From IMG/VR virus record IMGVR_UViG_2548876945_000002: 17,117 nucleotides of DNA. One strand, 5' to 3'. The notes below the pieces were generated by a model. That model did no database searches. It had not been told where the DNA came from and saw only the letters and a program-made list of their open reading frames with translations. Positions 2,935 to 14,671 of the stretch are shown one piece after another (position 1 is the first letter of the stretch; every line of letters starts with the position of its first letter). A program made the position numbers and the translations under genes. This DNA comes from a virus (Duplodnaviria; Heunggongvirae; Uroviricota; Caudoviricetes).

Positions 2935-3326
2935 GCGGCCTCCAGTAGCTCTGTAATCATTGGCAAACTCCCGCATGTTTCAGTCACAACCAACACAAGC
3001 ATTCCACCTTTAATCGCCTGATAGCGCTTGATGCGCATATCGTCTATCTGACCGTCATCCAGCCAGAAGCCCGCACTGGTGAGTGCGTCAAAAACGGCTT
3101 TGGGCAGATTGTCCAAATCTCGTTTGCGGTTATCGGGAGGTGCTGCGTGGATGGTTATTCTGATGCGAGGTGTGATTTTGATGTCTAGCTGTTGTTGCTG
3201 GATTATTTCGATTACTTCTTTTCGGTATCTCTTCCCCCAGTCGCTGATGTAGTGGATCCCTCTTGAGTGTCGCCAATATCGGTTGTTTGAAGGAGGCCAC
3301 GGCAATTTTATTCGGTAGGTTTTCAT
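2931..3326 (-). CDS. rusA: RusA-family Holliday junction resolvase, 131 aa
   Basis: Translation MKTYRIKLPWPPSNNRYWRH...RDLDNLPKAVFDALTSAGFWLDDGQI carries the RusA signature. It occupies the position NinG/Rap has in lambda. ATGA overlap with the upstream gene. Confidence 0.85.
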   Translation of the reverse strand: MKTYRIKLPWPPSNNRYWRHSRGIHYISDWGKRYRKEVIEIIQQQQLDIKITPRIRITIHAAPPDNRKRDLDNLPKAVFDALTSAGFWLDDGQIDDMRIKRYQAIKGGMLVLVVTETCGSLPMITELLEAA

Positions 3327-3613
3327 GACTTAATCTTCCCCTCCTTCAGCAGTATCGCCTGCGTCCTGATCACGCCTTCGAGGTGGTAAAGTCTGGCGTC
3401 TTTGTTGTCGAGAATCATTGTGCGTCGGTCGATCTCCGCGTGGCAGTCACTACAAGCCCATGCACCGATCAGGTCGTCAGGCTTCATTCCAGTTCCGCAA
3501 ATTCCAGCCATCCGGTAATGTGCCAGAACTGTAGTTTCAGGATTGCCATTGCATACGCCGTAAATACGTACCTGGCATTCTCTGCCGCGCGCTTCTTTGC
3601 GTAGGTTAGCCAT
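3323..3613 (-). CDS. YbcO-like protein (DUF1364, putative Zn-binding nuclease), 96 aa
   Basis: Translation MANLRKEARGRECQVRIYGVCNGNPETTVLAHY...CSDCHAEIDRR resembles DLP12 YbcO as recalled, which also sits next to rusA. Start ATG overlaps the upstream stop as TAATG. Confidence 0.6.
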   Translation of the reverse strand: MANLRKEARGRECQVRIYGVCNGNPETTVLAHYRMAGICGTGMKPDDLIGAWACSDCHAEIDRRTMILDNKDARLYHLEGVIRTQAILLKEGKIKS

Positions 3614-4338
3614 TAAGCAGCCTCCCCTGTTACTTTCAGCATTCCGTTATCGAGCAGCTTTCTGGTCAGCCACTGTTGACCACGCCCGGTGATTTTTGTG
3701 GTGAACGATATCTGTATTCCGTGATTTGTGTTGACCGCTGTTTCTTTCACTGTGAAATAGCCGCGCTCCATATATTCCTGCATTGGCACATTGCGCCGGG
3801 AACCTGAAGCAATAAGGATTTTGTGATCGCGCATCCACGCAAACAGTTTGTTTGGACCAATTCCAACAACCTTTGCAAAGTTTCCAATCAAAATTCCGCT
3901 GGCCTCGCCAACGCGATCGGCAAACTCAACTTTAGGTGCGGCAATTGCGAGCTGGTTTTCCAGTTGCATTTTCTGCTCAGCAAGATCAGCAGCAAGGCGC
4001 AACGCTTCCGGTAGCGTTTTGGGGATATTAACCGCAGCTTCTTCAAGCTCTCGCCAACGGTCAACAAGACGAGCGGTGAATTCCGGCGACAATTGGGCGA
4101 CGACAATAATGCTGTCTCGCTTTCCTTGTTCGCCCTCGAAGACGTAGAAATCACGCTTCCCGGTAATAACACCTAAATCATTGATTATGTTAGTGTGCTG
4201 CAATGCAGGAGGCTTGATAACGCCACGTTTCACCAATCTATCTATGGATACTTTTACATTGCTATGGCGGCTTTCTACCAACTCAGCGATTTCAATGCTG
4301 GTCATTTTGATGGCATTGCCATTTATTAACTCATTCAT
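3613..4338 (-). CDS. Rha/antirepressor-family protein (N-terminal Rha-like, C-terminal ANT/KilA-C-like), 241 aa
   Basis: N-terminal segment TSIEIAELVESRHSNVKVSIDRLVKRG looks like the phage Rha regulatory domain; the C-terminal half resembles antirepressor ANT domains. Domain calls are from memory of the families. Confidence 0.6.
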   Translation of the reverse strand: MNELINGNAIKMTSIEIAELVESRHSNVKVSIDRLVKRGVIKPPALQHTNIINDLGVITGKRDFYVFEGEQGKRDSIIVVAQLSPEFTARLVDRWRELEEAAVNIPKTLPEALRLAADLAEQKMQLENQLAIAAPKVEFADRVGEASGILIGNFAKVVGIGPNKLFAWMRDHKILIASGSRRNVPMQEYMERGYFTVKETAVNTNHGIQISFTTKITGRGQQWLTRKLLDNGMLKVTGEAA

Positions 4339-4501
4339 CGTCTTCTTCCTCGTACATTGAGCTATTCGGATCGCTCATCAGCTCTGCGCAGCAATCGGAG
4401 CACACGTGAACTTCCAGCATATGCAGCTTCTGACCGCAATTAGCGCACGTTAAAGCCCGCTCGACGCTTTGTTGTTCGTAACTTCGATTTGGGTCAATCA
4501 C
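4331..4501 (-). CDS. ninF: NinF, about 56 aa with GTG start (ORF-track start at 4543 is the alternative)
   Basis: Core [47 protein letters not shown] matches lambda NinF. GTG at 4501..4499 overlaps the ninE stop as GTGA, which I take as the more likely start. Confidence 0.65.
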
Positions 4502-6289: not shown

Positions 6290-8170
6290 TTAATACTCCG
6301 TCACGTTTTCCTGTCGCCACGCCTCGTCATATTCCGATTTCGGCATATTGGCGATGTAGCTATATGGCGATCCTGATTCAAGTTGCAGGAACTGGTGCGA
6401 TTGCTCATCAAGGAACAACGGGACACCACCTTCCCAACCTTCGCCGTTACGTTGTTTTTCAAGCATCAAAACAGATGCCGGAGATGCCAGTAGCTGTTCG
6501 TCCTTCTCTGACATCTTTTCACCACTCTGAACTCTCTGTAACGCTCTCTCGCGAGCCTTGTTACGCCAGATGATGAAAAGATTGTCTGTCAGGTCTGTTA
6601 TCGCTCCAGAGCCTTTTACGTCCATTTTCCCGGTTGGTTTTTCTTCGCTGTCACCTTTTCGCGAGTGAGTAACGAGAATGACGTGGGAGTTTGTTTTGTT
6701 TTTGAAATCGCAAATCGAGTCAACAAACGCCTTCTGCCCGTTATAGTCATCGTCGCCTATGCCACATTTCATCAGGCTGTCGATGATGAATAACTGGATG
6801 CCGTATCGGCGGCGAGCGTAGTCGAATATTTCGATCAGCCTGTCGGCTTTCGCCGTTCCGGTCAGGCCAAACACCCAAAGTCTTTCGTCATAAAATTTAA
6901 ATGCAGAGTCAATTTCCAGCACTGGCGGCATCTTGCAGCACGTCGCCTGACGGGTAAGTCGCTTAAGGAGAATGCCTGGCTTCAGCTCAAGTGACGCGAT
7001 GCACGTCTTCACACCCTGACGCATTGCCTCAAGTGCCATATGCCCGACAACCTCCGTTTTTCCGTGACCGTTCACACCATTGACCAGCGTCAACTCGGCC
7101 TCACGGAACTGGAATTTATCTGCCAGAGATTCCCATGGTGGATTAAACAGATACTGCTGCTTGCCGTAGAAAGCGTTGATTGTGTCCTGGTAAAACTCTC
7201 GCGCGCTGTAGAGTTCTTCAGGATCGAAGTAGGATGCCGTGCCGATGTACTGCCAGATTTCATCCTCGGTAACACCGTTCATCAGGCATTCGTTGATGTC
7301 TTTGTACGGCAGAGTAACAAGACGGCAACGATGTTCACCGAGTCGGCTTGCGATTTCCCTTGCGGCTTCACGACCAACATCATCAACATCCATCGAGATG
7401 AATATTTCCTCAAACCTGTCGAGGTTGTGATACTCAAACTCAATCCACTGTTGCTTAGCGCCTTTCCCGCCACCAAACGGCACGGATAACGCCGAGATGC
7501 CGTATTGCGCATAGCTCATACAATCAATTTCGCCTTCGCAAAGTACAACCGCCCTCACGCCAGCGTCCAGAGCCTGCCATCCGAACAGACAAGGTTCGCA
7601 ATCACCTTCTGCCATAATGACTTTCTTCCCGTCCGGGCGCTCAGTGCTGATTCGCTTGACCTGCAACAACTCACCATCGCGTTTGTACGGAAGCACCAGA
7701 GCATCCAGTTCTCGTTCTCCATTCCACACCTTTCCGCTGACAACCTCGTAGCGCTTTACGACTTCTGGCGATATGCCACGCGATTGCAGGTACTCAAGAT
7801 GGGATTCTGTTCTGGTAACGTAGCGGGCGATTTTCTTGCGATCAGGTCTGGAGAATTTCTTCTCACGTTTGGCATCGAAATGGTGATCGTCATCCTTGAT
7901 ACCGAGAAATGCTTTCGCTTCCTGCATAGCCTGATGCAGGTTAATTCCACGACATGCCATCCACAAATCAAGCATGTCACCGCCGTCTCCCTCAGCGAAA
8001 TCAGCCCATTTTTTCTTGCCGCTAAGGTTGACCTTAAGGCTGTTTCCCTTGTCACCGTTGACGTTACCGGCAACCCACTCATGCCCCTCTTTCTTGCCGT
8101 TTGGCAACAGGTGCGGAGCCACCCTGTCAACCTGCGCCCAAAGCAGGTTGCTAAGTTCACTTGGCCTCAT
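6290..8170 (-). CDS. Replicative DNA primase-helicase fusion (TOPRIM primase domain plus DnaB/RecA-fold helicase domain), 626 aa
   Basis: Central TOPRIM-like segment (VVLCEGEIDCMSYAQYGISALSVPFGGG) and C-terminal Walker A (LVNGVNGHGKTE) and Walker B-like (LFIIDSL) motifs. It occupies the position of lambda P. ATG start confirmed at 8170..8168. Confidence 0.8.
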   Translation of the reverse strand: MRPSELSNLLWAQVDRVAPHLLPNGKKEGHEWVAGNVNGDKGNSLKVNLSGKKKWADFAEGDGGDMLDLWMACRGINLHQAMQEAKAFLGIKDDDHHFDAKREKKFSRPDRKKIARYVTRTESHLEYLQSRGISPEVVKRYEVVSGKVWNGERELDALVLPYKRDGELLQVKRISTERPDGKKVIMAEGDCEPCLFGWQALDAGVRAVVLCEGEIDCMSYAQYGISALSVPFGGGKGAKQQWIEFEYHNLDRFEEIFISMDVDDVGREAAREIASRLGEHRCRLVTLPYKDINECLMNGVTEDEIWQYIGTASYFDPEELYSAREFYQDTINAFYGKQQYLFNPPWESLADKFQFREAELTLVNGVNGHGKTEVVGHMALEAMRQGVKTCIASLELKPGILLKRLTRQATCCKMPPVLEIDSAFKFYDERLWVFGLTGTAKADRLIEIFDYARRRYGIQLFIIDSLMKCGIGDDDYNGQKAFVDSICDFKNKTNSHVILVTHSRKGDSEEKPTGKMDVKGSGAITDLTDNLFIIWRNKARERALQRVQSGEKMSEKDEQLLASPASVLMLEKQRNGEGWEGGVPLFLDEQSHQFLQLESGSPYSYIANMPKSEYDEAWRQENVTEY

Positions 8171-8277: not shown

Positions 8278-9054
8278 TCACCTGTCGAAAAACACGTAGC
8301 CAGTTTTCGATACGGTGATTGCGGATGATGGTTTGGATTGTGGTTGAATGGTTTCTGGCTTTTCGTCGTTCCAGCGCTGACCGTTCAGGTAGCTCGATGG
8401 TAACAACCTGTCGAATCCGAACTGCTTACCATTCCTGCACGCAATGTCTTCTGCCAGCATCGTGGCAAACTCGCTTGCCGTCCCCCTGGTAGTTTTACGC
8501 CATTCCCTGAACTGTGTTCTGAATGCTGAAGCTGCGTTTTTCTTCCCGGCTTTCCGCATGCCTGCACACCAGAATATTTCCTCGAATGCCTTGTCGGTTT
8601 CTTCGTGACGGTCAGGAGTTTTTTCACACTCTGTTCGGACATGTTCGAACATAATGTTTTTAGGTTCATTGACTGGTTCAAAAGAGTGATAGGTTCTGGG
8701 GGCAGCTCCTGCCCCACCCCCTAGGGCAGCTCCTGCCCCACCCCGGGCAGCTCCTGCCCCACCTGATTCTGGTTGGATTTGTTGTGCATTATCCAGCGTC
8801 AGATAAAAAACGTTTGACTGGTTAAGCTCTCCTTTTCTTCTGAATTCCCTTTTCAAAAGCCCCATCTCTTCCAGTGCCCTAATGTGACTTTTTACTGTCG
8901 ATCTGCTCACCTCACACTGGTCAGCGACATGTTGATATGAAGGCCAGCATTCGCCATTATCATTGGCGTTATCGGCAAGTTTAATCAGAACCAGTTTTCT
9001 CAGTGGGTTGCCAACCTTTATATTCATGGCCTTAGCCATAAGATTCATGCTCAT
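8278..9054 (-). CDS. Putative replication initiator / replisome organizer (N-terminal winged-helix HTH, Gly/Ala linker, C-terminal domain), 258 aa
   Basis: Lies immediately upstream of the primase-helicase and downstream of cII, the lambda O position. N-terminal HTH-like segment LVLIKLADNANDNGECWPSYQHVADQCEVSRSTVKSHIRALEEMGLL. Contains in-frame iteron-like DNA repeats. Start overlaps the upstream small ORF as ATGA. The initiator role is inferred from position and architecture. Confidence 0.55.
   Translation of the reverse strand: MSMNLMAKAMNIKVGNPLRKLVLIKLADNANDNGECWPSYQHVADQCEVSRSTVKSHIRALEEMGLLKREFRRKGELNQSNVFYLTLDNAQQIQPESGGAGAARGGAGAALGGGAGAAPRTYHSFEPVNEPKNIMFEHVRTECEKTPDRHEETDKAFEEIFWCAGMRKAGKKNAASAFRTQFREWRKTTRGTASEFATMLAEDIACRNGKQFGFDRLLPSSYLNGQRWNDEKPETIQPQSKPSSAITVSKTGYVFFDR
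8697..8763. repeat. Three tandem iteron-like direct repeats (unit GGCAGCTCCTGCCCCACC, 21-24 bp period) inside the initiator gene; candidate replication origin
   Basis: Copies at 8701-8718, 8725-8742 and 8746-8763, each with an internal dyad GGCAG/CTGCC. They encode the GGAGAA-rich linker. An AT-rich stretch (about 8641-8697) follows in the gene direction, as in ori-lambda within O. Confidence 0.5.
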
Positions 9055-9216: not shown

Positions 9217-9513
9217 TTAAAATTCCATTTGTATTTGCTCAGAATCCTCGGTGGCAGCCGGGGATTTTTTCTTTGTGAGTCCATCAAGCGCATACTTAAA
9301 AGCCCTGCTAATCGGACTGATATCTGATGCCATTCCGAAAGCACACAAGACCGAAGCAATAAACCGCCAGTCCGTTCTGCTTATCTTCGATTCATGACAG
9401 CCAATCATCTTTGCCAGACCGCGCTGGGTAAGCGTTGACAGGTTGATGAGTAAATCCGTTTCTGCGCGATCAACGTCGCGCTGGGATAGTTTGCTGTAAC
9501 TTGTTTGTGTCAT
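9217..9513 (-). CDS. cII: CII-like transcriptional activator, 98 aa
   Basis: C-terminus LTKKKSPAATEDSEQIQMEF closely matches lambda CII (LTNKKRPAATERSEQIQMEF as recalled). Central HTH-like region. Sits downstream of cro and nutR. Confidence 0.85.
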   Translation of the reverse strand: MTQTSYSKLSQRDVDRAETDLLINLSTLTQRGLAKMIGCHESKISRTDWRFIASVLCAFGMASDISPISRAFKYALDGLTKKKSPAATEDSEQIQMEF

Positions 9514-9651: not shown

Positions 9652-9879
9652 TTATGCAGCCAGAAGGTTCTTTTTGCTTATTTCAAGCATTTCGCTTGCT
9701 TGATATTTGCCACCAGAAATCTCTTCGATTTTTGATGCGTATTTAGTTTTCCCAAAAAACTCAGTCTTAGGGAGGAAGCCGTTTTTGAGCCACTTATAGA
9801 CAGCCCTTTCGCTAACTCCACAAGCCTTCGCAACTTCAGGGATGCCGACACCTTTAATCGGCTCATCAAGATTTTGCAT
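9652..9879 (-). CDS. cro: Cro-like repressor (small HTH protein), 75 aa
   Basis: Divergently transcribed from cI across a 78-bp operator region. HTH segment GIPEVAKACGVSERAVYKWLKNG. ATG at 9879..9877 with AAGGA 9 nt upstream. Assigned mainly by position. Confidence 0.6.
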   Translation of the reverse strand: MQNLDEPIKGVGIPEVAKACGVSERAVYKWLKNGFLPKTEFFGKTKYASKIEEISGGKYQASEMLEISKKNLLAA

Positions 9880-9965
9880 AGGAATATCCTTTTTCGTACT
9901 TTCAGTACGTATTATGGTTGAACTGAAAGTTTTTGCAAGTGCTTTAGTATCGTACTCATGGTTCA
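9880..9965. promoter_or_regulatory. Right operator/promoter region (OR, pR, pRM) between cro and cI
   Basis: Perfect palindrome CGTACT-ttc-AGTACG at 9895-9909; related inverted element GAACTGAAAGTT at 9920-9931; third related site ATCGTACTCATGGTTC overlapping the cI start. Candidate pR on minus: TTGCAA (9939..9934), 16-nt spacer, CATAAT (9917..9912). Candidate pRM -10 TAGTAT at 9945-9950, 7 nt before the cI ATG. Confidence 0.55.
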
Positions 9966-10665
9966 GAATGAAAAAGTGCGCAAAGAATTCGCCCAGCGGC
10001 TAGCGCAAGCCTGTAAAGAAGCTGGTCTTGATGAACATGGTAGGGGAATGGCTATAGCCCGTGCCCTTTCTCTTTCGTCCAAAGGCGTTAGCAAATGGTT
10101 TAATGCTGAGTCTTTACCGCGTCAGGAAAAAATGAATGCGCTTGCGAAATTTCTAAACGTTGATGTTGTTTGGCTTCAGCACGGCACTTCGTTAAATGGA
10201 GCGAATGATGAAGATACTCTTTCATTTGTTGGCAAATTAAAAAAAGGGTTAGTGCGCGTGGTTGGTGAGGCAATTCTTGGTGTTGATGGTGCCATCGAGA
10301 TGACCGAAGAGCGCGATGGGTGGCTCAAAATTTATAGCGATGATCCAGATGCCTTTGGTCTTCGTGTGAAAGGAGACAGCATGTGGCCCAGAATAAAATC
10401 AGGAGAATATGTACTCATTGAGCCTAACACCAAAGTATTCCCGGGTGATGAGGTGTTTGTCAGAACCGTTGAAGGACACAACATGATTAAGGTTCTTGGC
10501 TATGACAGAGATGGAGAATACCAATTTACAAGCATTAACCAGGACCACAGGCCAATAACGTTGCCTTATCATCAAGTAGCAAAGGTGGAGTATGTGGCTG
10601 GTATTCTGAAGCAATCTCGCCATCTGGATGACATCGAGGCAAGGGAGTGGCTGAAAAGTTCGTGA
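9958..10665 (+). CDS. cI: CI-type repressor (N-terminal HTH, C-terminal LexA-like S24 autopeptidase domain), 235 aa
   Basis: N-terminal HTH (GMAIARALSLSSKGVSKW) and C-terminal S24 motifs (KGDSMWP). ATG at 9958 with no Shine-Dalgarno and a -10 hexamer only 7 nt upstream, suggesting a leaderless transcript as for lambda cI. Confidence 0.85.
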   Translation: MVQNEKVRKEFAQRLAQACKEAGLDEHGRGMAIARALSLSSKGVSKWFNAESLPRQEKMNALAKFLNVDVVWLQHGTSLNGANDEDTLSFVGKLKKGLVRVVGEAILGVDGAIEMTEERDGWLKIYSDDPDAFGLRVKGDSMWPRIKSGEYVLIEPNTKVFPGDEVFVRTVEGHNMIKVLGYDRDGEYQFTSINQDHRPITLPYHQVAKVEYVAGILKQSRHLDDIEAREWLKSS

Positions 10666-10933
10666 CTTCATCGTCACATAGCTGGTAACCAGTGGCCTGA
10701 AGAGACGTTTGGGTGATGTGATAGAGATCATTATTCAATTCGATTGAGAAAAATCATCATAAGGTTTATATCCATTTATTAGATTTTATGTGTATAAATA
10801 GTTAAAAATGCACGATGTAGAGATATTTGTGCTTAACATCAATTAATCATTGCTAAATCGTGCTTATTGTTCAGAAATCGCCCAAGTCATATTGAAAATC
10901 TGTTGGCGAACACCTATATAAGGAGTATAGTTA

Positions 10934-11296
10934 GTGACCCAAAACGTATTGCCAATCAACAAGAGCTTGCATGACCGAGCTGTTGATGAATTTAATCGTC
11001 TGCATGGAACAATGATTGGCGAGATTAGTGCAATGCTGAAAACAGCTAAAGTAGCGCCATTGGTGGATCTTCGTAAGAAAGATCCTACCTTTTCGAACGT
11101 TGTCGCAGAATTACGGACATTCAGAGACGTATGTAATGCTCTGCTCCCATACTTTCGTGTAGATAAGACCAGCGAAATCGCTGTCATCGATAAGTTACTT
11201 ATACTGGCTAATGACCTGGCTCAAGCCATCGATGCTGACGATCCTGACGCATTGTGCGCAGCAATAGCAGCCCTTGATGTTGAGCCTTACATTTAA
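10934..11296 (+). CDS. Hypothetical protein (120 aa) in the cI-to-pL accessory slot
   Basis: GTG start at 10934 with AAGGAG 8 nt upstream. Preceded by about 270 bp of AT-rich non-coding DNA containing promoter-like hexamers. Predicted soluble and helical. I do not recognise the sequence. Confidence 0.6.
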   Translation: MTQNVLPINKSLHDRAVDEFNRLHGTMIGEISAMLKTAKVAPLVDLRKKDPTFSNVVAELRTFRDVCNALLPYFRVDKTSEIAVIDKLLILANDLAQAIDADDPDALCAAIAALDVEPYI

Positions 11297-11311
11297 ACGA
11301 GGGGAAAAAAA

Positions 11312-11440
11312 ATGACTAAAGCGTTTGACTATACTGCCGTTAGTAAGCTTTTGGCTGAAATGCGCGGATGTGTAGAGCGCGTTCAAAATCTACGCCGCGA
11401 CTTTGAAGCTCACATCAATCATTCACAAAAAGCGGCTTGA
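11312..11440 (+). CDS. Small ORF (42 aa) following the 120-aa gene
   Basis: MTKAFDYTAVSKLLAEMRGCVERVQNLRRDFEAHINHSQKAA, found by manual translation. GAGGGG lies 7 nt upstream of the ATG. Followed by an intrinsic terminator. Confidence 0.4.
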   Translation: MTKAFDYTAVSKLLAEMRGCVERVQNLRRDFEAHINHSQKAA

Positions 11441-11461
11441 TACTTAAGTTAGATGACAGAA

Positions 11462-11487
11462 CCCGGCCTCAGCGCCGGGTTTTCTTT
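11462..11487 (+). terminator. Intrinsic terminator closing the cI-side accessory cassette
   Basis: Stem CCCGGC / GCCGGG with a 6-nt loop, followed by TTTTCTTT. Confidence 0.65.
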
Positions 11488-11655
11488 GCCTCACGTTCGC
11501 CCACCTAAAAAACATAACCAATTGTATTTATTGATGTAACTCGCTAAACCATGCAGTTATGATCCCTGCCGCATAACCTTCATCAGCCACATTTTCAAAA
11601 ATAAATTTCCTTATATATCAGAATCATACTTCGTAGAGTTAATAAATCACCAAAA

Positions 11656-11700
11656 TTCGTACCAATAGTTCTTGATAATGTCGAACTATTGGTTCATTAT
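11656..11700 (+). promoter_or_regulatory. Candidate pL promoter with left operator sites
   Basis: TTGATA (11672-11677), 17-nt spacer, CATTAT (11695-11700). A perfect 10-bp inverted repeat CCAATAGTTC / GAACTATTGG (11662-11671 and 11683-11692) overlaps the -35 and spacer. TTCGTACCAATAGTTCT resembles the OR site TTCGTACTTTCAGTACG. Confidence 0.5.
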
Positions 11701-11949: not shown

Positions 11950-12333
11950 ATGACACGCAGAACTCAGTTCAAAGGCAATTCACGTTCTCGTCGTCGTGAG
12001 CGTTTAAAGGCAAAGGCATTAGCTAACGGCGTACTGGCCCGCGAAGAAGCAATAAGTTCAGAAGTATTACACCGCCCTACTCTAAGCAGAGCGCAGATTC
12101 AGGCTAAAGGTACTCACGAAACGCCTGAGCGCATAGAAGACGCTAAGCCAATTAAGTTCATGGCACAGGACGTGATCTGGCAACAGAAAGAATACAGACG
12201 CAATCTGGAGAGAGCGGCCATTGTGTACGCGAATGAGTTTGGGCATAGGCAACCAGAAACTGGTGTATGTCTTCCAAATGTAGCTCTTTACGCGGCAGGC
12301 TACCGTAAATCCAAACAACTGACAGCAAGATGA
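11950..12333 (+). CDS. N: N-type transcription antiterminator (P22 gp24-like), 127 aa
   Basis: N-terminal arginine-rich motif GNSRSRRRERLKAKA. C-terminus LPNVALYAAGYRKSKQLTAR closely matches the P22 N C-terminus (LPGVALYAAGHRKSKQITAR as recalled). AGGAGG 6 nt upstream of the ATG. First gene after pL and nutL. Confidence 0.8.
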   Translation: MTRRTQFKGNSRSRRRERLKAKALANGVLAREEAISSEVLHRPTLSRAQIQAKGTHETPERIEDAKPIKFMAQDVIWQQKEYRRNLERAAIVYANEFGHRQPETGVCLPNVALYAAGYRKSKQLTAR

Positions 12334-13545: not shown

Positions 13546-13663
13546 GCATAAACAACAGAATAAACACTGCACTGTGTATTCATTCCAACGAGTGAATACA
13601 CGGAGCAATGTCGCTCGTAACCAAACAGGAGCCGACTTGTTCTGATTATTGGAAATCTTCTTT

Positions 13664-13690
13664 GCCCTCCAATGTGAGGGCAATTTTTTT
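13664..13690 (+). terminator. Intrinsic terminator just upstream of the coiled-coil gene
   Basis: GCCCTC-CAATGT-GAGGGC hairpin followed by AATTTTTTT. It falls inside the ORF-track N-terminal extension of the next gene, so that gene more likely starts at 13703. Confidence 0.65.
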
Positions 13691-13702
13691 GACGGAGGAT
13701 AT

Positions 13703-14671
13703 ATGAGTGAAGTAACAGATTTAGTTGTTATTGAAAAAGCAAATGCAATGACTGTATTTCAGTCTGCCGACCAGATTGAAGAAATTCTCCAAAAGGTTGA
13801 ACGTGAAGTTATGTCCTTTGTGCCTGATATCACAACGGCAAAGGGCAGAAAGGAGATCGCTTCTCTGGCGTATAAAGTTGCGCAGACGAAAACATATCTC
13901 GATGGTCTTGGCAAAGACCTTGTTGCTGAACTGAAGGAAATTCCAAAGCTAATTGATGCCAACCGCAAAACAGTGCGCGATCGCCTTGATGAACTGAAAG
14001 CCAAGGCGCGCCAGCCTCTTACTGATTATGAGGAAGAACAGGCGCGGATTAAAGCCGAAGAAGAAGCTAAGGCAGCAGCTGAAGCTCTCGCAAAGCAAAT
14101 TGAGTCTGACCATGAAATAGCGATTTTGATGGATCGCGAATTTGACCGCCAAAGAGAAGAGGCAAGACTCAAAGCGGAGCAGGAAAAGCGAGAGCATGAA
14201 GAGCGCTTAAAAAGAGAAGCTGAAGAGAAAGCCAGAGCTGAAGCCGAAGCAAAGGCAAAAGCCGAAATTGAAGCAGCAGCAAGGCGAGAAGCAGAAGCTA
14301 AGGCAGCAGCGGAACGTGCAGAGCGTGAACGTATTGAAGCCGAGCAACGAGCACAGCGCGAAGCAAAAGAGGCAGCAGAACGAGCTGAAAGAGAAAAGCA
14401 GGCAGCGATTGAAGCAGAACGCAGAAAAGCACAGGAGGAGGCTGAACGAATCCGTCGCGAGGCTGAAGCAAAAGAGCAAGCCAGAATAGCAGAAGAAAAA
14501 AGAATCAAGGACGAAGAAGAGCGTAGAGCAAAGGATAAAGCTCACCGGAAAGAAGTAAATAACAAAATACTTGCTGACCTTATCAAGGTTGGAGCATCAG
14601 AAGATGTTGCTAAAAATATCATAACAGCCATCGTAAAAGGCGAAGTATTCGCAACAAAAATAACCTACTAA
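13703..14671 (+). CDS. Hypothetical protein with a long charged ER/K-rich alpha-helical (coiled-coil or single-helix) domain, about 322 aa
   Basis: Start ATG at 13703 with GGAGG 4 nt upstream. About 120-residue N-terminal domain, about 170 residues of EAEAKAKAE / REAEEKARAE-type repeats, then a short C-terminal segment. TolA-like in composition only. Confidence 0.7.
   Translation: MSEVTDLVVIEKANAMTVFQSADQIEEILQKVEREVMSFVPDITTAKGRKEIASLAYKVAQTKTYLDGLGKDLVAELKEIPKLIDANRKTVRDRLDELKAKARQPLTDYEEEQARIKAEEEAKAAAEALAKQIESDHEIAILMDREFDRQREEARLKAEQEKREHEERLKREAEEKARAEAEAKAKAEIEAAARREAEAKAAAERAERERIEAEQRAQREAKEAAERAEREKQAAIEAERRKAQEEAERIRREAEAKEQARIAEEKRIKDEEERRAKDKAHRKEVNNKILADLIKVGASEDVAKNIITAIVKGEVFATKITY

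Follow-up and report, generated by a model that had tools for sequence, protein, structure and literature searches.

The oldest known abortive-infection system is rexAB of phage lambda, which encodes RexA (about 279 amino acids, aa) and RexB (a membrane protein of 144 aa) from a slot that also holds several other exclusion genes, and HK022 nun and 933W stk are other cargoes of this cI-N slot. The cI-N region is a mosaic hotspot of diversity, occupied by rexAB in lambda and by bstA in the Salmonella prophage BTP1 (Owen et al., PMC8585504); the abortive-infection gene bstA lies downstream of cI, has a terminator to itself and reaches high expression in lysogens (PMC8585504). A slot of this kind also harbours the toxin-antitoxin (TA) operon paaR2-paaA2-parE2 of the cryptic lambdoid prophage CP-933P, which is addictive, is transcribed under the prophage switch and has been proposed to stabilise the immunity region; its antitoxin PaaA2 is small (63 aa), encoded first and devoid of a DNA-binding domain, and ParE2 is a gyrase toxin of the ParE/RelE fold (PMC8630535). 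Here we analyse a stretch of 17,117 nucleotides (nt) from the IMG/VR virus record IMGVR_UViG_2548876945_000002 (Caudoviricetes), referred to below as the window, which contains a lambdoid prophage early region and carries, in the position of rexAB, a cassette of two open reading frames (ORFs), A of 120 aa and B of 42 aa.

We consider it very probable that the cassette represents a functional accessory pair linked to lysogeny. As to its role, the interpretation that we prefer, and to which we would give a probability of roughly 40%, is that a labile B restrains A, the two proteins forming a lysogen-expressed TA-like or sensor-effector pair which may serve abortive infection or exclusion, or else addiction to the prophage. 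Such a defence or TA-like role is plausible from the position of the cassette, from the pairing of its genes, from the linkage to repressors and from the degron-like terminus of B, and the invariant Ala-Ala-COOH of B adds one new piece of sequence evidence to the TA-like interpretation, as well as a mechanistic handle (dependence on ClpXP) that can be tested. With rexAB replaced by two unrelated uncharacterised proteins, the locus represents a focused and cheap candidate for a defence or addiction module. If the interpretation is true, a very small system (less than 750 bp) joins the defence repertoire and illustrates the way in which prophages couple such systems to the repressor operon; should it be refuted, A and B remain a well-defined conserved cargo.

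The cassette in the rexAB position and its distribution

When the window was aligned to lambda (J02459) with blastn, only two significant matches were obtained, and both are flanks of the cassette. On the left, window 10690-10717 corresponds to lambda 37253-37226 with 27 of 28 positions identical and holds the last cI codons with the stop (..QWPEETFG stop); on the right, window 11460-11534 corresponds to lambda 35826-35754 with 93% identity and comprises most of the rexB stop codon and the t_imm terminator that follows it. About 742 bp (10718-11459) stand where lambda has rexA-rexB, of about 1.4 kb, and judged from this alignment the cassette is an exact replacement of rexAB between the 3' end of cI and t_imm. 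The cI of the window itself is not of the lambda type; the lambda-cI remnant lies 3' of its stop codon and is a recombination fossil at the cI/rex boundary.

The locus had been singled out in an earlier reading of the letters alone (the sequence-only reading), which assigned the pair to lambda's rexAB slot, in agreement with these flanks, and called the slot a hotspot for exclusion or defence genes, in agreement with the published cases of rexAB and bstA (PMC8585504) and of paaR2-paaA2-parE2 (PMC8630535). Its view of the terminator as part of a self-contained unit stands in part: a hairpin terminator is present, but it is lambda's t_imm and so belongs to the conserved flank and is not specific to the cassette. 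The layout that it proposed, with cI, spacer, both ORFs, a Shine-Dalgarno sequence of the first, a promoter-like pair and the terminator, was recovered at the same coordinates throughout, and is listed here together with the neighbouring genes (GC, guanine plus cytosine fraction).

9217-9513, minus strand: cII
9652-9879, minus strand: cro
9958-10665, plus strand: cI-type repressor of 235 aa, helix-turn-helix (HTH_3) and Peptidase_S24 (E=4e-16), phrog_4 transcriptional repressor
10666-10933: non-coding spacer of 268 bp between cI and ORF A
10690-10717, plus strand: left junction, lambda-type cI 3'-end remnant of 28 nt, from the lambda alignment
10718-10933, plus strand: AT-rich non-coding upstream region specific to the cassette, GC 0.29
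10892-10920, plus strand: candidate promoter P1, TTGAAA (10892-97), 17 nt, TATATA (10915-20), from sequence and conservation
10903-10931, plus strand: candidate promoter P2, overlapping P1, TTGGCG, 17 nt, TATAGT, 9/12 match
10920-10925, plus strand: Shine-Dalgarno sequence of ORF A, AAGGAG, 8 nt ahead of the GTG start
10934-11296, plus strand: ORF A, 120 aa, GTG start, family phrog_13858
11299-11304, plus strand: Shine-Dalgarno sequence of ORF B, GAGGGG, inside the 15-nt gap between A and B
11312-11440, plus strand: ORF B, 42 aa, family phrog_12503
11459-11487, plus strand: intrinsic terminator, lambda t_imm; hairpin 11459-11482 with a 9-bp stem, 6 G-C pairs and a 6-nt loop, then UCUUU (centroid structure)
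11460-11534, plus strand: right junction, homology to lambda over the rexB stop codon, t_imm and downstream, from the lambda alignment
11672-11700, plus strand: pL-like promoter
11950-12333, plus strand: N antiterminator (PF25694)

The cI gene stands upstream in the lysogenic transcription unit and is regarded here as context of the cassette, not as a member of it.

The likeness to lambda rexAB is one of position, identical to the nucleotide, of two dispensable cargo genes downstream of cI and co-oriented with it, and of a presumed co-transcription from pRM plus an extra internal or upstream promoter. The proteins themselves, predicted to be soluble, have neither sequence nor fold relationship to RexA and RexB, lambda matches being limited to the flanks, and the cassette has half the size of rexAB; a polytopic membrane component of the RexB type is missing from the models, in which A is a soluble bundle and B an amphipathic helix. 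BstA resembles A/B in being tied to the repressor locus, downstream of cI and presumably under the cI promoter, but it is one large protein, accompanied by a self-immunity element encoded in DNA (aba), and no homology to it was found with PADLOC and Pfam. In CP-933P the TA pair lies directly downstream of a CI-like repressor, as A/B do, whereas in A/B the larger protein is encoded first and no ParE or PaaA family match was obtained. The hotspot is also common to HK022 nun, 933W stk and the DUF3024 and NYN genes of an Stx2a phage, whose proteins are unrelated to A and B.

The latter phage, Stx2_EH0505 (L038, LC616031), has the window's cI and both flanks and another cargo in the slot (3061-4407), namely a DUF3024 protein of 113 aa and an NYN-domain protein of 285 aa, a further uncharacterised two-gene cargo that is possibly RNase-based. 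Part of the lambda-cI remnant is present there in a second copy within the slot (3404-3423). In the IMG/VR prophage L017, a true lambda-type cI is followed by the A/B cassette at the rexAB position. Sequence homology with other cassette-bearing loci begins at 10678-10711, and the unit of approximately 10711-11490 is found again, at about 81% identity, behind unrelated repressors. The features expected of a cargo cassette, which are sharp mosaic boundaries, variable presence and a conserved promoter-like block, are all found here, the terminator belonging to the flank.

The 835-bp stretch of the cassette is 100% identical to a prophage in Escherichia coli strain E2 and at least 99.9% identical in many Shiga toxin-producing (STEC), human and poultry E. 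coli strains, including H19. It occurs at nearly full length in 89 of 5426 complete E. coli genomes, where A and B are always annotated as two hypothetical proteins. Strain E2 shares an identical cassette, cI, cro and N with the window and has lambda-type O and P; the replication module of the window (6290-8170, minus strand) encodes a Toprim and DnaB-like primase-helicase (compared with L001 8922-10519). Since the replication genes differ, the block of immunity genes plus cassette sits in different mosaics.

A word-indexed search of 5.8 billion proteins returned 14 relatives of A, and a full HMMER search with the profile against 1.84 billion representatives returned only 36 clusters. Setting aside fragments, a few members with N-terminal extensions (up to 182 aa) and one spurious repeat protein of 1574 aa, all of these clusters stand alone as proteins of about 104-130 aa. 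The family is narrow and Gammaproteobacterial, with members in Escherichia, Citrobacter, Enterobacter, Serratia, Pantoea, Hafnia, Yersinia, Proteus, Xenorhabdus, Gilliamella and Glaesserella. In every locus examined (about 30 IMG/VR and genome loci, plus gp26/gp27 of phage Pm34) a B-like ORF of 37-45 aa follows A, after 6-18 nt in lambdoid loci and a somewhat longer gap in P2-like ones; small neighbouring genes always inherited jointly are what is expected of a TA-like pair. In one prophage (L036 2813-3014, IMG/VR UViG_2681813316_000009) a deletion fuses A1-36 to B11-42 in a hybrid ORF of 68 aa that retains the KAA end.

Almost always a repressor is encoded 200-490 nt upstream of A, and at 60% clustering these repressors comprise at least 13 distinct cI-type sequences (HTH plus S24), true lambda cI among them. 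In P2-like prophages the interval from the C repressor (PF07022) to the integrase is occupied by the most distant homologues, with 27-31% identity. A check proposed with the sequence-only reading, whether homologues always sit beside cI-like repressors, thus comes out positive for all these cI types and for the P2 C repressor and negative for one Serratia locus, whose upstream ORF is not cI-like. The pair was detected in 1 of 50,697 isolated phage genomes and in 1 of 72,556 plasmid records, the latter a 2.2-kb record that we take to be an assembly fragment, so that the pair is missing from real plasmids. Pairing, repressor linkage and distribution together indicate that A/B is a portable module placed behind lysogeny repressors of any specificity.

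Proteins A and B

Both genes are annotated only as hypothetical and B is very short, which could invite the view that the spacer between cI and pL is non-coding and that A and B are chance or decaying frames in it. The conservation data argue strongly otherwise. Pairwise Nei-Gojobori pN/pS (the ratio of non-synonymous to synonymous differences per site) is about 0.05-0.4 across both genes (dN/dS about 0.05 in A, 0.07-0.4 in B), with synonymous sites saturated in distant pairs, and the non-synonymous divergence of A and that of B are similar from pair to pair; judged from these values both A and B are under purifying selection. The frames remain intact across Enterobacterales, Gilliamella and Glaesserella at protein identities down to 24-45% and saturated synonymous sites, lengths are conserved (42-43 aa for B in 27 of 28 clusters, 110-130 aa for most members of the A family), as are Shine-Dalgarno sequences and start codons, and AlphaFold2 models of A and B are confident. 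By the conservation data spurious frames are excluded, and we leave them a practically negligible chance. An overlapping RNA constraint on B was also considered and dismissed, as low synonymous divergence is seen in a few close pairs only and fits recombination.

Neither A nor B matched a Pfam, NCBIfam or PADLOC model (E<=1-10), and no recognised toxin fold or family was found in them; the only real family matches are PHROGs phrog_13858 for A and phrog_12503 for B, both of "unknown function". When 30 family members were searched along with A against Pfam, NCBIfam and PADLOC, no family emerged, only scattered single PADLOC hits among the 30 at E>=0.002, and a sequence profile search of the PDB returned designed helical proteins with weak E-values and nothing else. 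No paper was found on the two protein accessions, the two PHROG ids or four peptide strings of A and B. The impression that neither protein is recognisable, already given by the letters alone, is thereby strengthened: the kind of element is known, a cI-N cargo or exclusion-type cassette, and its proteins are without characterised relatives. HEPN-, Doc-, Hha/TomB- and Nun-like ideas were dropped, since neither motifs nor Pfam favoured them and not all B proteins have the Cys.

Protein A is acidic (isoelectric point, pI, 4.9), of 13 kDa, with a grand average of hydropathy (GRAVY) of 0.15. Structure prediction had been suggested as a check of the cassette, and AlphaFold2 describes A as a predicted soluble helical bundle with long helices at 5-40, 53-73, 79-101 and 104-115 and a short helix at 43-47 (predicted local distance difference test, pLDDT, 82.5; predicted template-modelling score, pTM, 0.73), for which no informative structural match was obtained. 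Conserved positions are mainly hydrophobic, with the addition of the motifs AKLxP, PSF and a C-terminal AIAALDxKPYI, which in most members is the very end of the protein, without extension. The family alignment contains no catalytic-looking constellation of conserved residues, and for this reason A probably acts by binding something.

Protein B is basic (pI 9.1, 4.8 kDa, GRAVY -0.50) and is predicted to be a single soluble amphipathic helix, covering residues 7-41 of the AlphaFold2 model (pLDDT 93.7), with a heptad-like hydrophobic stripe of V10, L13, L14, M17, C20, V21, V24, L27 and F31. In an alignment of 10 close-to-moderate relatives D6, L14, C20 and L27 are invariant, C20 being lost in more distant B-like ORFs. 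The C-terminus stands out most: all 16 B-like ORFs taken from the loci end in Ala-Ala (13 KAA, 2 QAA, 1 LAA), including otherwise unrecognisable P2-like ones, as do 27 of the 28 database clusters, the exception being a truncated entry of 30 aa, while the residues ahead of the terminal Ala-Ala are variable.

Of the determinants by which ClpXP recognises ssrA-type degrons, Ala-Ala-COOH matters most (PMC7652416), and when E. coli was screened in an unbiased way with C-terminal pentapeptides, Ala-Ala ends were present in 91% of the top 100 degrons, strong tags being neutral or slightly positive with Leu preferred at position -3 (PMC10862746). Tails of B, for instance SQKAA and IPKAA, have a net charge of 0 to +2 and fit the main rule of these degrons, not their optimum. 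With the ssrA tag and other substrates of the ClpX C-motif 1, B has Ala-Ala-COOH in common, its antepenultimate residue being usually Lys and not Leu; unlike the ssrA tag, a degron of B would be genetically encoded and constitutive. From this terminus we infer that B may be a protein with built-in short life, labile to ClpXP.

Proposed role and competing explanations

No intrinsic terminator is predicted between cI and ORF A; since nothing of the kind separates cI from the cassette, read-through from pRM would be the most likely source of its transcripts in the lysogen. In the scheme that we infer from sequence, the cassette would be transcribed in the lysogen by this read-through, possibly also from its own conserved sigma-70 promoter, with an end at t_imm, and two small cytoplasmic proteins would be produced. 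B, short-lived through ClpXP and requiring continuous resynthesis, would bind and restrain A, and would be kept in supply by transcription of the repressor operon. Shut-off of host expression by a superinfecting phage, a change in proteolytic flux or loss of the immunity region could interrupt this supply; A, the effector, would then be free to bind and block an essential process of host or phage. The phenotype, defensive or toxic, would consist in abortive infection or exclusion, or in an addiction of the cell to its prophage. It would be possible to go further and to see in A/B a new, portable family of prophage abortive-infection or exclusion systems in which the ClpXP-timed half-life of B is the sensor and the non-enzymatic A, by means of its C-terminal KPYI, the effector; taken as a whole this more specific proposal is rather unlikely.

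Several observations weigh against a labile B that restrains A. In the pentapeptide screen 39% of the tags ending in Ala-Ala were weak, so that the terminal Ala-Ala is insufficient for strong degradation (PMC10862746); position -3 of B is mostly K or Q instead of the preferred Leu, and AlphaFold2 keeps the tail of B helical to residue 41, almost to its end. B has no DNA-binding domain and hence no classical autoregulation of type II, although the PaaA2 type is an exception of the same kind among antitoxins (PMC8630535), and no toxin, antitoxin or defence model in Pfam, NCBIfam or PADLOC-DB v2.0.0 matches A or B. Transcripts from the cassette's own promoter would be without the Shine-Dalgarno sequence of ORF A or even its start codon, the predicted start from P1 lying near 10927, just 3' of the Shine-Dalgarno sequence, and that from P2 near 10937, 3' of the GTG; the message bearing a Shine-Dalgarno sequence may be the pRM read-through transcript. 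Finally, B occurs in E. coli, though rarely, in natural variants that end in ..KAT, in ..KAD, in a frameshifted ..KRLDT (10 contigs) or, after stop loss, in ..KAARPAGLLPN (clusters P0068, P0069, P0070, P0074), which indicates at the sequence level that the Ala-Ala terminus can be lost in some lineages. As a stabilised or lost end appears to be tolerated there, these variants agree better with a neutralising role of B than with an effector role.

The position of the cassette would also suit a pair that tunes the prophage's own lysis-lysogeny switch, its induction or the re-establishment of repression, and has no part in defence against other phages. The strict linkage to a repressor gene in lambdoid and P2-like prophages and the exact rexAB position speak for this, a short-lived peptide is a natural timing device, and RexA is reported to bias the bistable lambda switch toward the lytic state independently of RexB (PMC11077077). 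Yet the cassette is found unchanged behind at least 13 unrelated repressor and operator specificities, both S24-cleavable and non-S24 (P2 C-type), and because it moves among unrelated repressors A and B cannot be specific for any one repressor or operator. The cassette is moreover dispensable, most lambdoid phages being without it (it is present in 89 of 5426 E. coli genomes) and the same cI occurring with other cargo, and neither protein has a recognisable DNA-binding fold, all of which makes a role in the switch improbable to us. We regard as about equally improbable that A and B are ordinary lysogenic-conversion cargo acting on host physiology, such as stress tolerance, biofilm or virulence regulation, with no relation to phages or killing. 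Many cargo genes of lambdoid prophages are indeed host-directed, the cassette is present in STEC and poultry E. coli lineages, and the proteins are small, non-enzymatic binders, but the pair is confined to the repressor-adjacent slot of two unrelated prophage types and missing from real plasmids, and its restriction, among the loci examined, to prophage immunity regions argues for a role linked to phages. Besides, those characterised cargoes of the slot that are considered here are exclusion, defence or TA genes.

A further alternative, in our opinion slightly less probable still, turns the relation to proteolysis around, so that A/B act on ClpXP or another AAA+ protease, B as a decoy or competitor, present in abundance and with an ssrA-like tail, and A as an adaptor or anti-adaptor that docks through its conserved free C-terminus, in analogy to an anti-ClpP action of RexB. 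Both extreme C-termini are conserved, [K/Q/L]AA in B and ..KPYI without extension in A, and the cassette replaces rexB, whose product reportedly prevents ClpP-dependent degradation of lambda O, Phd and MazE; queueing of substrates for proteolysis at ClpXP is mentioned in PMC12013620. Against this, no known protease-docking motif resembling KPYI was found, Pfam searches gave no homology to SspB, ClpS, RssB or anti-adaptors, a decoy needs no second protein, and expression at lysogen level may not saturate ClpXP.

Expression signals and other features of the window

The cassette had been described as AT-rich, and this holds for its spacer, with a GC of 0.33 over 10666-10933 and 0.29 over 10718-10933 against 0.457 for the whole window, but not for the genes, as ORF A (0.446) and ORF B (0.450) have a GC, and a GC at third codon positions (GC3), like those of neighbours such as cI and N. 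The idea that base composition suggests horizontal acquisition consequently fails for the genes, and there is no compositional argument for a foreign origin of A/B. Several sigma-70-like hexamer pairs had also been noted in the region; they are present, TTGAAA-17-TATATA among them, but their number is not above chance (4 found, 5.8 expected in shuffled sequence).

It is conservation alone, not the count of pairs, that marks out P1. In an alignment of 10 divergent loci, including Proteus phage Pm34 and Xenorhabdus, the -35 element TTGnAA and the -10 element (T/C)ATAtA were kept in all 10, the TTG and TATAnT of P2 are conserved too, the GAG of the Shine-Dalgarno sequence of ORF A is invariant, and the block of promoter, Shine-Dalgarno sequence and start is kept in 10 of 10. 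The block CCTATATAAGGAGTATAGTTAGTGACCC is nearly unchanged in 8 of these loci and looser in Proteus phage Pm34 and Xenorhabdus. Such conservation suggests that P1 may be a functional promoter. A search of Rfam gave no family over threshold, and an sroD-like match at the terminator was dismissed, having 19.8 bits against a threshold of 50.

Related words of 16-20 nt occur at OR (9945-9968), at pL/OL (11676-11696) and at 10857-10876 (ATCGTGCTTATTGTTCAGAA, about 20 nt upstream of the -35 element of the cassette). The last of them, identical to the OR copy at 17 of 20 positions, could be an extra repressor site. However, this stretch accompanies the cassette behind other repressors as well, so that the likeness may be due to chance, and the site was set aside as a cI operator. 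A single CTTATTG stands upstream of the window's cassette at 10863-10869, and in two P2-like prophages (L039 2850-2885, L044 2838-2870) three tandem copies of TTTATTGATG or CTTATTGACG, 10 bp apart, precede the distant homologues of A; tandem repeats of the CTTATTG type may be the binding site of a regulator. A perfect 11-nt inverted repeat, ACCAATAGTTC-N11-GAACTATTGGT, lies at 11661-11693 and overlaps the pL-like TTGATA-17-CATTAT; it presumably represents the OL operators of the window's immunity type.

Farther from the cassette, the extreme AT skew at 14100-14550 (up to 0.73) stems from an ORF of 340 aa (13649-14671, plus strand), whose coiled-coil-like product is rich in E, A, K and R and matches nothing in Pfam. 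A 21-nt tandem repeat of 2.9 copies at 8700-8763, GGGCAGCTCCTGCCCCACCCCA, is situated within an ORF of 258 aa (8278-9054, minus strand) resembling HTH_36 replication initiators, and encodes a GGAGAA-rich stretch of this protein.

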